From positions 1 through 27,551 of the IMG/VR virus record IMGVR_UViG_3300045988_032611: a stretch of 27,551 nt of DNA; one strand, given 5' to 3'. The number at the start of each line of letters is the position of its first letter. The stretch's first letter is position 1. Below the pieces are notes generated by a model, which saw only the letters and a program-made list of their open reading frames with translations, was not told the origin of the DNA and did not search any database. Shown here in pieces: positions 742 to 1,314 of this stretch. The stretch comes from a virus. The position numbers were made by a program, and so were the translations under genes.

Positions 742-1314
742 TCAAACAAAAATTAAAATTCTCTGTATATCGTTGCCGTAGCCGTCGCCGTAGCCGTCGC
801 CGTCGCCGTCGCCGTAGCCGTAGCCGTAGCCGTAGCCGTTGCCGTTGCCGTAGCCGTTGCCGTAGCCGTCGCCGTAGCCGTCGCCGTAGCCGTTGCCGTA
901 GCCGTTGCCGTTGCCGTTGCCGTAGCCGTTGCCGTCGCCGTAGCCGTTGCCGTTGCCGTTGCCGTAGCCGTAGCCGTTGCCGTTGCCGTTGCCGTTGCCG
1001 TTGCCGTAGCCGTTGCCGTTGCCGTTGCCGTACACGGTCCTATTGATTTCAATATCTGTCAACTCTCTGATGATTCTCAGGTCAGATGCTGCATTCTTGT
1101 GCCCATCAGTTTCAACTGTGCCTGATGCTTCAACCTCGAAAAAACGATTTCCCTCTTTTTTGTCGTAGAAATCAAAGACATCTATCAACCTTTCACAGAA
1201 GTGCAGTCCGTTCTTGCACACTATGATATCTCCATCAACATGATAGGATTTCCCTATCTCAAACTGCATTCCCCGACAGGTCATGTCAGATTCCATCCCT
1301 TTATAGCCTTTCAC
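742..1314 (-). CDS. DUF7666-like N-terminal domain protein with a 43 x Gly-(Asn/Tyr/Asp) dipeptide-repeat tail
   Basis: GTG start at 1314 with AAGGAG 6 nt upstream. The N-terminus MKGYKGMESDMTCRGMQFEIGKSY...C.NGLHFCE matches my memory of the DUF7666 pattern. The C-terminus is pure GN/GY/GD repeat followed by DIQRILIFV. Confidence 0.75.
   Translation of the reverse strand: MKGYKGMESDMTCRGMQFEIGKSYHVDGDIIVCKNGLHFCERLIDVFDFYDKKEGNRFFEVEASGTVETDGHKNAASDLRIIRELTDIEINRTVYGNGNGNGYGNGNGNGNGNGYGYGNGNGNGYGDGNGYGNGNGNGYGNGYGDGYGDGYGNGYGNGNGYGYGYGYGDGDGDGYGDGYGNDIQRILIFV
772..1029. repeat. Hexanucleotide tandem array, 43 units of GTNGCC on + (GGC-NAC on the coding strand)
   Basis: Read directly from the sequence. 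Every unit is gcc+gt[t/a/c], and only one position per unit varies. Confidence 0.95.

Follow-up and report, generated by a model that had tools for sequence, protein, structure and literature searches.

Proteins with a DUF7666 domain are encoded by phages, prophages, and giant viruses (for example, Salmonella phage ES18 gp53 and the Rheinheimera phage "pentapeptide" proteins), and in these the same N-terminal domain (N-domain) is followed by tandem repeats. The repeats of these sister proteins are 5, 7, 8, or 9 residues long or are of the leucine-rich-repeat (LRR), MORN, HEAT-like, or ankyrin type, and a further C-terminal domain usually follows. Here, we describe a DUF7666 gene at positions 742 to 1314 of a viral sequence of 27,551 nucleotides (nt) (IMG/VR record IMGVR_UViG_3300045988_032611; the whole stretch was analyzed and is referred to below as the window). 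Its product carries 43 consecutive Gly-X dipeptides (the G-X array; X is Asn, Tyr, or Asp) and ends in a short hydrophobic motif. Compared with its sisters, the window protein has its repeat cut to a dipeptide and its C-terminal part to 9 residues; many of the sister repeats share with the G-X array a position that varies among D, Y, and N. In temperate phages, DUF7666 proteins are encoded in an early accessory slot, as is the window protein.

Beyond the family, the tail of the bacterial single-stranded DNA-binding protein (SSB) shares a three-part logic with the window protein, in that a folded domain is followed by a Gly-rich linker of poorly conserved length and a conserved hydrophobic or aromatic tip (PMC7584906). 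The window gene also lies in a replication and recombination neighborhood. However, the oligonucleotide/oligosaccharide-binding (OB) fold of SSB is absent here, the tip is IQKILMF, a hydrophobic sequence, where SSB has the acidic DDDIPF, and the linker is a strict dipeptide repeat; we treat the resemblance as an analogy only. In Pol II and Pol IV, the β-clamp-binding consensus Q-φ-x-[LM]-x-[FL] lies at the C-terminal end of a disordered tail (PMC11139829). The window protein matches these clamp motifs in Q, L, and F at positions 1, 4, and 6 and in its placement at the end of a predicted disordered tail, but it differs by K/R at position 2 and by conserved flanks, leaving a possible resemblance at the level of sequence.

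Contingency loci and hypervariable coding microsatellites are simple repeats within coding sequence whose copy number changes far faster than their flanks, as is seen among relatives of the window gene. In contrast to contingency loci, the 6-nt unit changes only the length and composition of the tail, without frameshift switching. Gly-rich, polymorphic, slippage-prone repeats are found in the mycobacterial PE_PGRS proteins (Gly-Gly-Ala/Asn), in prion-like G/N/Y domains and low-complexity aromatic-rich kinked segments (LARKS), in silk-like proteins, and in the C9orf72 dipeptide repeats, all with a composition typical of self-associating low-complexity domains. The G-X arrays differ from these in being strict dipeptide repeats with X limited to Y, N, or D (and S) on small cytoplasmic phage early proteins, and they share no homology with them. 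The window gene combines two features of known kinds, namely, a microsatellite within coding sequence and a low-complexity tail attached to a Pfam DUF domain. A literature search for such Gly-X tails found no paper describing them, in agreement with a preliminary description of this DNA, which knew of no such tail on a phage early protein. The G-X array exemplifies a widespread, apparently undescribed module of phage early proteins.

A uniform hexanucleotide array encodes the tail

The gene and its parts are as follows (aa, amino acids; ORF, open reading frame; TRF, Tandem Repeats Finder; AF2, AlphaFold2; pLDDT, predicted local distance difference test).

742 to 1314, minus strand: complete gene (190 aa plus stop) with DUF7666 domain, G-X array, and C-terminal motif, from the ORF list and translation
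1321 to 1326, minus strand: Shine-Dalgarno sequence AAGGAG, 6 nt 5' of the GTG start, read from the sequence
1030 to 1314, minus strand: N-terminal globular domain (aa 1 to 95), DUF7666, from Pfam (E = 2e-29), AF2 (pLDDT >90), and conservation
772 to 1029, minus strand: array of 43 × (GGC NAC) hexamers encoding (G-[N/Y/D])43 (aa 96 to 181), from codon count, TRF, and pattern scan
889 to 924, strand not assigned: 36-nt exact internal duplication, copy 1, from self-comparison of the array
997 to 1032, strand not assigned: 36-nt exact internal duplication, copy 2, from self-comparison of the array
745 to 771, minus strand: C-terminal motif DIQRILIFV, from a logo of 85 homologs and alignment

The array is composed of 43 GGC, 20 AAC, 16 TAC, and 7 GAC codons and no others. 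Within the hexamer, position 4 alone varies (A20/T16/G7, never C), with the remaining five positions invariant. The preliminary description had reported the 43 dipeptides, their N20/Y16/D7 counts, the span from 772 to 1029, and the DIQRILIFV end, and all of these are exact to the base. TRF assigned a period of 6 with 43.5 copies, and the pattern (GGCNAC)3 was matched 41 times in the window versus 0 times in 100 shuffles. In 20 other genes of the genome, the same codons are used at 48% (GGC), 67% (AAC), 47% (TAC), and 59% (GAC) for their residues; on this background, a run of 86/86 such codons would have a probability of ∼1e-24. The remainder of the gene freely uses GGA, GGG, AAT, and GAT. The GC content is 69% in the array versus 50% in the genome, and the array mRNA is less structured than shuffled sequences (z = +2.3). 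Over its 86 residues, the tail is 50% G, 23% N, 19% Y, and 8% D; by composition and predicted disorder (pLDDT ∼30), it is a G/N/Q/Y/S-rich disordered segment of the kind that characterizes prion-like and LARKS domains.

The preliminary description also noted that Asn units lie toward the N terminus and Asp units toward the C terminus. This gradient is real in the window array (permutation P = 0.001) but is not a family trait, as no N-to-D polarity was found across the tails of 119 relatives (described below). The order of N, Y, and D is random-like (26 runs versus 27.6 ± 3 in shuffles). Because the gradient is absent family-wide and the runs are random-like, it probably reflects the local duplication history of this array. 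The two 36-nt copies, spaced 108 nt (18 units) apart, are the trace of a block duplication.

The repeat also gives rise to by-product ORFs in other frames, namely, a 99-aa (Ala-Thr)n ORF at 753 to 1052 (minus strand) and an 85-aa antisense ORF at 524 to 781 (plus strand). Antisense ORFs of this kind, lying over arrays, yield spurious "conserved neighbor" BLAST matches between loci.

The tail and C-terminal motif are shared by close DUF7666 relatives

A search with residues 1 to 95 retrieved 191 clusters at an E value of ≤1e-3, of which the 120 best listed are 56 to 79% identical to the query. Nearly all of these 120 relatives continue from the N-domain into (G-[Y/N/D])n and then into [ND]-I-Q-[KR]-[IV]-L-[MLI]-[FY]-[IVA], usually at the extreme C terminus. 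Judged from these sequences, the G-X tail characterizes the whole subfamily and not the window protein alone. Across 119 tails, position 1 of the unit is Gly in 97.9% of cases, while X is occupied by Y (45%), N (26%), D (22%), C (1.5%), S (1.1%), or H (0.5%). The arrays in these tails span 3 to 43 units (median, 15), with the window array the longest of the set; relatives in IMG/VR reach 41 to 43 units. Among deposited phage records (INPHARED; 50,697 records), 191 matches to the N-domain were found, all at <45% identity and none with the G-X version. The statement in the preliminary description that relatives carry far more complex tails applies to the wider DUF7666 superfamily, whereas the close relatives carry the same G-X array.

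In >100 homologs, the frame is kept open through arrays of every length into the conserved C-terminal motif, and the GTG start of the window gene restores an MKGYKG N terminus that is conserved in all homologs. Because of the strong Shine-Dalgarno sequence and a frame that stays open through all array lengths into a conserved motif, 742 to 1314 is a real gene and is predicted to be translated as an accessory gene of an early operon. In approximately 4 of the 120 homologs (P0030, P0031, P0048, and P0083), the reading frame departs from G-X partway through the array and runs on into unrelated sequence up to the C terminus; each is either a frameshifted allele or a misassembly. No conserved gene neighborhood of the G-X DUF7666 genes was found. 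Their neighbors differ, as is expected of a mobile accessory gene.

Arrays turn over rapidly and in frame

Relatives whose N-domains are 100% identical have tails of different lengths, the differences being 2, 4, 6, 8, 10, or 14 residues (always an even number), and the order of the tail units differs among them as well. At the DNA level, turnover was followed in three proteins with identical N-domains, located on four contigs. Here, the N-domain DNA is identical at 285/285 positions and the C-terminal 30 nt at 29 to 30 of 30, while the arrays measure 153, 165, and 183 nt. One of these arrays equals another plus a 42-nt block duplication and minus 12 nt. In the arrays of these relatives, a synonymous GGT always accompanies GAC and serves as a unit marker, including within the duplicated 42-nt block. 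The identical 165-nt array was recovered from two independent samples and assemblers.

Since the N-domain DNA is identical while the arrays differ in multiples of 6 nt, units must be gained and lost rapidly and in frame. These comparisons are direct evidence that the arrays grow, shrink, and reshuffle via slippage or unequal recombination, both in 6-nt steps and in multi-unit blocks. The preliminary description had proposed such expansion, and the comparison of repeat lengths in related genomes that it called for bears the proposal out. Its likening of the array to a contingency locus holds in part. In relatives, repeat number indeed outpaces the flanks, but such change is not seen in the window strain (three same-strain contigs are identical), and an on/off switch is absent because the 6-nt unit never shifts the frame and every difference in length amounts to whole dipeptides.

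Selection acts on the peptide

More diverged DUF7666 relatives mostly use GGC/NAC, although one lineage uses GGC/NAT and others have degenerate arrays with mixed codons. Arrays on unrelated scaffolds are internally uniform, and their Gly codon is lineage specific: GGC (29/30 and 33/33), GGT (33/33), or GGG (30/30). Because arrays are uniform within but use different codons between lineages, the uniformity is best explained by expansion and the conservation lies at the level of the peptide. Codon uniformity is thus the footprint that each array's own expansion has left, a form of concerted evolution. Selection on the DNA itself, which the preliminary description had offered as an alternative, is disfavored, as the same peptide is encoded via GGT, GGG, or NAT codons.

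Among 2,703 IMG/VR units, the variable base is T in 48%, G in 32%, and A in 19%, whereas C, which would give the His codon CAC, accounts for 0.9% (25/2,703). We considered avoidance of GGCC restriction sites as the sole cause of the missing His codon and rejected it, because CAC is likewise absent from GGT- and GGG-type arrays. The N/Y/D mix persists despite fully homogenized synonymous sites, and His is nearly absent; together, these features speak for selection on the side chains. Taken together, these patterns show selection on the peptide rather than on the DNA, with Gly kept at position 1, a Tyr/Asn/Asp mix kept at position 2, and His excluded.

G-X arrays recur on unrelated phage proteins

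A search with the tail only recovered similar arrays on at least 5 unrelated small-protein scaffolds. When IMG/VR was then scanned for exact runs of eight consecutive GGCNAC units, at least 120 loci (L070 to L189) were obtained, with 129 ORFs open in the G-X frame and arrays of 8 to 70 units (median, 33). Among the matches listed, 104/129 G-X ORFs carry the array as a C-terminal tail, and only 2/129 are DUF7666-like. Thus, the tail is not rare and not specific to the window protein; it belongs to a whole subfamily and to many unrelated phage proteins. Three array genes lacking DUF7666 are located in phage early regions, with integrase, helix-turn-helix (HTH), ERF, RusA, and YqaJ genes nearby.

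At one locus (L070), two small array genes occur in tandem. Each of the three unrelated array genes without DUF7666 mentioned above (L065, 1866 to 2494; L068, 1233 to 1879; and L069, 3813 to 4411) lies directly downstream of, and slightly overlaps, a DUF6948 (PF22253) gene; DUF6948 and the G-X array gene may form a conserved gene pair.

The DUF7666 domain and its possible ADP-ribosyltransferase-like fold

The preliminary description had called the N-domain DUF7666-like, and Pfam confirmed this assignment (PF24703; aa 1 to 86; 102.3 bits versus a cutoff of 27; E = 2e-29). Across the superfamily (4,595 clusters at 50% identity), K5, G36, H38, and C40 are invariant and Y4, G21, Y50, and K73 are nearly so. 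The resulting core, Y-K ... G-x-H-x-C ... Y-Y, is present in the window protein (Y4, K5, G36, H38, C40, and Y50). We also considered a zinc site formed by C13, C33, H38, and C40, but C13 and C33 are lost in several branches.

DUF7666 is found fused to Pentapeptide_2, BspA-type LRR, MORN, and HEAT-like repeats and, in giant viruses, to ankyrin repeats. In the wider superfamily, pentapeptide-like N[ST]G[DNY]x units and units of 7 to 9 residues also follow the domain. Sister proteins match Pentapeptide_2 (PF01469), whereas the window protein, with a period of 2 residues, has no Pfam match to that family. The 5-, 7-, 8-, and 9-residue repeats (L011, L026 to L056, and P0142 to P0268) share a "G-[D/N/Y]-x" core in which D, N, and Y alternate by unit, with a hypervariable residue directly after them (R, Q, S, C, Y, W, or L). 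This core resembles a repeat-variable diresidue, and the G-X array looks like its stripped minimum. A 62-kb contig from a Candidatus Gracilibacteria metagenome-assembled genome (MAG) (JALNXF010000007.1; L005 and L007 to L010) encodes at least 4 DUF7666 paralogs with YD/RHS-like repeats ("YEYDENNNLIK").

DUF7666 genes occupy accessory slots in early operons. ES18 gp53 (L057; locus 2980 to 3828), a long-known protein with a DUF7666 domain, is encoded directly after an N-like antiterminator, and a putative terminator follows its gene. Lambdoid phages use this slot for exclusion and anti-restriction genes; gp53 offers a tractable model for the family. Literature searches for DUF7666/PF24703, the repeat strings, and the Rheinheimera "pentapeptide" genes found nothing relevant.

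AF2 modeled the full-length window protein with a confident N-domain (pLDDT >90) and a tail of pLDDT ∼30, predicted to be disordered. In a homolog with a 3-unit tail, the C-terminal motif remained undocked (pLDDT ∼46); intramolecular docking of the motif onto the N-domain is thus unsupported by AF2 even with so short a tail. A Foldseek search with the full-length model gave no PDB match. With the compact model, from which the disordered tail was removed, Foldseek matched the rifampin ADP-ribosyltransferase (ART) Arr (2hw2, E = 8.2e-4; 9iaf, E = 2.5e-3; both with a probability of 1.0 and template modeling [TM] scores of 0.39 to 0.49). For 2hw2, the TM scores are 0.48/0.39 and the root mean square deviation is 7.1. 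Matches below Arr (Tpt1, RES, diphtheria toxin, and ExoS) were all nonsignificant. Independently, the depositors of Acinetobacter phage fEg-Aba01 labeled one of its proteins, in which Pfam confirmed the DUF7666 domain, a putative ADP-ribosyltransferase on the basis of similarity to 2HW2.

Arr (PDB entry 2HW2; H-Y-[EDQ] clade), the best structural match, resembles the N-domain locally ("FEVEASG" versus "YIVEPTG"), and the invariant H38 and nearly invariant Y50 are candidate counterparts of the His and Tyr in its H-Y-[E/D/Q] triad. The N-domain is nevertheless ∼45 residues shorter, with an H-to-Y spacing of 12 versus 30 in Arr, and differs from it further in showing no significant profile similarity and in lacking a conserved acidic catalytic residue across the superfamily. 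Conservation of E60 and E62 reaches ≥90% in the G-X subfamily only; other branches have lost them. The Pfam search of the window protein returned no ART family. We rejected filing DUF7666 as an ART, because the hhalign comparison with Arr is nonsignificant; the "ART-like fold" suggested by modeling is a lead and not a classification.

The array is probably soundly assembled in a temperate phage genome

The window ends (1 to 119 and 27433 to 27551) are identical over 119 nt and are bridged by another contig (L002); the window thus represents a closed circular genome of 27,432 bp. The 119-nt end overlap looks like an assembly overlap at k = 119. The exact 190-aa protein and an identical array also occur in three other samples, on contigs produced by two assemblers (MEGAHIT k119 and SPAdes), and these contigs are 99.98 to 100% identical to the window. 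The longest exact repeat inside the array is 36 nt, well under read and k-mer lengths. Because of this short internal repeat and the recovery of the same array from other samples and two assemblers, collapse or chimerism of the array, which the preliminary description had named as a possible artifact, is unlikely.

The genome belongs to a small temperate phage, and its tail genes are of the siphovirus type. It encodes an integrase (6596 to 7654, plus strand) and a divergent HTH repressor (6397 to 6621, plus strand), and both adjoin a predicted promoter.

6305 to 6333, minus strand: sigma-70-like promoter TTGACA-17-TATATT (11/12), a candidate from a consensus scan only

This promoter-like site, read from 6333 to 6305, is likely the head of the early operon that contains the window gene. 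On the minus strand, the operon encodes a Sak4-like annealase, an SSB-like protein, a RusA-like PDDEXK resolvase, a DUF6291 protein, a lipoprotein, and then the window protein. The label "early gene," given in the preliminary description, is reasonable in view of this operon and its promoter-like site beside the repressor and integrase. The remaining genome encodes an Amidase_2 plus SLH endolysin and terminase, portal, protease, capsid, tail, and tape measure proteins. The endolysin (24906 to 25652, minus strand) combines Amidase_2 with an S-layer-homology (SLH) domain, and one G-X relative is located in an Eubacteriales MAG (L004); therefore, the host is probably a Clostridia-type bacterium with an S-layer. 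A megablast search of positions 1 to 5000 of the window against INPHARED found no near-identical phage genome, and PADLOC and NCBIfam searches returned nothing meaningful.

Two further early-operon genes have features of their own. The DUF6291 gene (2244 to 2855, minus strand) contains a 15-nt tandem repeat, TCCTATCCTATCCAA, in 2.8 copies at 2527 to 2573. It encodes DRIGL-DRIGM-DRIGE and is a second small in-frame coding repeat in the operon. The lipoprotein (1600 to 2247, minus strand; 215 aa), with a signal peptide and lipobox (LLTGC), weakly matches Cor-type superinfection exclusion proteins in the signal peptide only; from its sequence, it is a candidate exclusion or cell wall-associated protein.

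A diversity-generating retroelement (DGR) target was considered and rejected. No reverse transcriptase was found among the ORFs of the genome, and the mutation pattern is wrong for a DGR, with one base in six varying and the A at hexamer position 5 invariant.

Possible roles of the tail

All that follows on function we infer. The product of the window gene has three parts: a compact DUF7666 domain, a Gly-X array predicted to be disordered, and a conserved, hydrophobic C-terminal linear motif, I-Q-[KR]-[IV]-L-x-F-x. The array may act as a flexible, mildly acidic tether of adjustable length, made weakly sticky by its Tyr and Asn residues. It could hold out the C-terminal motif for binding by a partner, perhaps the β sliding clamp or another host hub, and/or make multivalent weak contacts. 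Either way, the DUF7666 domain would be localized; it may be an effector-like module with a fold weakly resembling Arr-type ARTs, a suggestion that draws on the fusion of sister DUF7666 domains to protein-binding repeats. We favor this proposal as a whole, in which an adjustable, weakly sticky tether presents the conserved motif and localizes an effector-like domain, but hold it tentatively and at somewhat short of even confidence.

Several observations weigh against the tether proposal. In the C-terminal motif, Q-[KR]-[IV]-L-[MLI]-[FY], positions 1, 4, and 6 agree with the clamp consensus Q-φ-x-[LM]-x-[FL] but position 2 does not, having K/R instead of an aliphatic residue. Conservation also covers the full 8-residue stretch, including the I that precedes Q. 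A hydrophobic strand, or what is left of the C-terminal domain found in the sister subfamilies, would explain the motif just as well. On other scaffolds, most G-X arrays terminate the protein without a conserved motif; therefore, the array probably has a function of its own beyond tethering. No array variation was found within the window strain across the three matching contigs from other samples. As to the effector-like domain, hhalign comparisons of DUF7666 with Arr were not significant (probability of 0.1% with Arr-2 and 0.25% with the Arr alignment), and FEVEASG/YIVEPTG was the sole aligned piece. Profile searches of the PDB gave no ART match, only low-complexity noise or an insignificant R2D2 match, and conservation of the third, acidic catalytic residue does not extend across the superfamily.

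The tail's main job could instead be self-association, as suggested in the preliminary description, with prion-like or LARKS sticker-spacer behavior producing condensates, gels, or amyloid-like assemblies and array length setting the threshold. The G/N/Y/D composition matches prion-like low-complexity domains, AF2 predicts disorder for the tail, and bare C-terminal arrays recur on many unrelated phage proteins, where function would seem to reside in the array as such. Predictions of prion-like domains exist for phage proteomes (PMC5694896), and the Gly-rich linker of SSB drives phase separation (PMC7584906). However, Asp occupies 22 to 32% of the X positions, and its charge would oppose amyloid packing, while the conserved C-terminal motif of the subfamily is left unexplained; we consider self-association unlikely as the main role. 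A role as nucleic acid mimic or decoy, in which Asp and Tyr at every second residue imitate single-stranded DNA or RNA and occupy host DNA-binding or defense proteins, is suggested by the composition, by an i to i+2 spacing of ∼7 Å (near the phosphate spacing), by recombination genes among the early-operon neighbors (Sak4, SSB-like, and RusA-like here; ERF, RusA, and YqaJ elsewhere), and by the anti-restriction/exclusion slot of ES18 gp53. This argument is one of analogy alone, Asp is the rarest unit in the window array (7/43), and no similarity to known DNA mimic proteins and no PADLOC matches were found, which makes mimicry improbable. A regular metal-binding fold, such as a Ca2+-dependent β-roll or the DxDxDG-like loops proposed for PE_PGRS and RTX proteins, seems very improbable. 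DGDGDG and NGDGNG runs fit the D-x-[DN]-x-[DN]-G calcium loop pattern, and sister subfamilies carry solenoid-type repeats (Pentapeptide_2), yet AF2 shows no regular structure. Moreover, a period of 2, a random N/Y/D order, and a freely variable length fit a defined fold poorly, and the proteins are presumably cytoplasmic, where free Ca2+ is low.

The array may also have no function in the protein at all. A tolerated coding microsatellite, that is, a slippage-prone linker drifting in length, would account for the extreme variability in length and unit order and for the statistically random-like N/Y/D order. Drift would erode the pattern, however, whereas Gly is kept at 98%, X is limited to Y/N/D with His excluded, separate lineages and unrelated scaffolds build the same peptide from different codons, the frame is kept in all but ∼4/120 homologs, and the N/Y/D mix persists at fully homogenized synonymous sites. 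We give this explanation little weight, comparable to that of the nucleic acid mimic. A role at the DNA or RNA level (protein-binding hexamers, a recombination hot spot, or a structured element) or an assembly artifact would fit the perfect codon uniformity and the GC content of 69% in the array versus 50% in the genome. Such explanations are, like the metal-binding fold, barely plausible: other hexamers (GGTNAC, GGGNAC, and GGCNAT) encode the same peptide elsewhere, the array RNA is less structured than shuffles, the identical array occurs in three other samples and two assemblers with a longest internal exact repeat of 36 nt, and the lack of a reverse transcriptase in the genome means that no DGR is present.

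In a bolder reading, G-[Tyr/Asp/Asn] arrays might be a widespread, independently maintained module of evolvable "rheostat" tails, with slippage rapidly retuning both their length and their Tyr/Asp/Asn mix. Such tails would drive partitioning into host replication/recombination condensates or mimic single-stranded nucleic acid and so deliver different small effector domains (here, a minimal Arr-like one) to host targets. We regard this as speculative and quite unlikely, a shade more so than self-association.

Implications

The interest of these tails rests on their prevalence, on the speed of their change, and on the clean separation of mutational mechanism from peptide-level selection. If the account given here is true, natural dipeptide-repeat tails are a common class in phages that has so far escaped description, with the peptide kept by selection while slippage reshapes its length and order on very short time scales. 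Such tails would provide a simple natural system for how low-complexity length and composition tune protein behavior. The conserved C-terminal motif would be a concrete handle for finding a host partner, and the possible ART-like fold would be the first functional lead for DUF7666, a very large family in phages and giant viruses.

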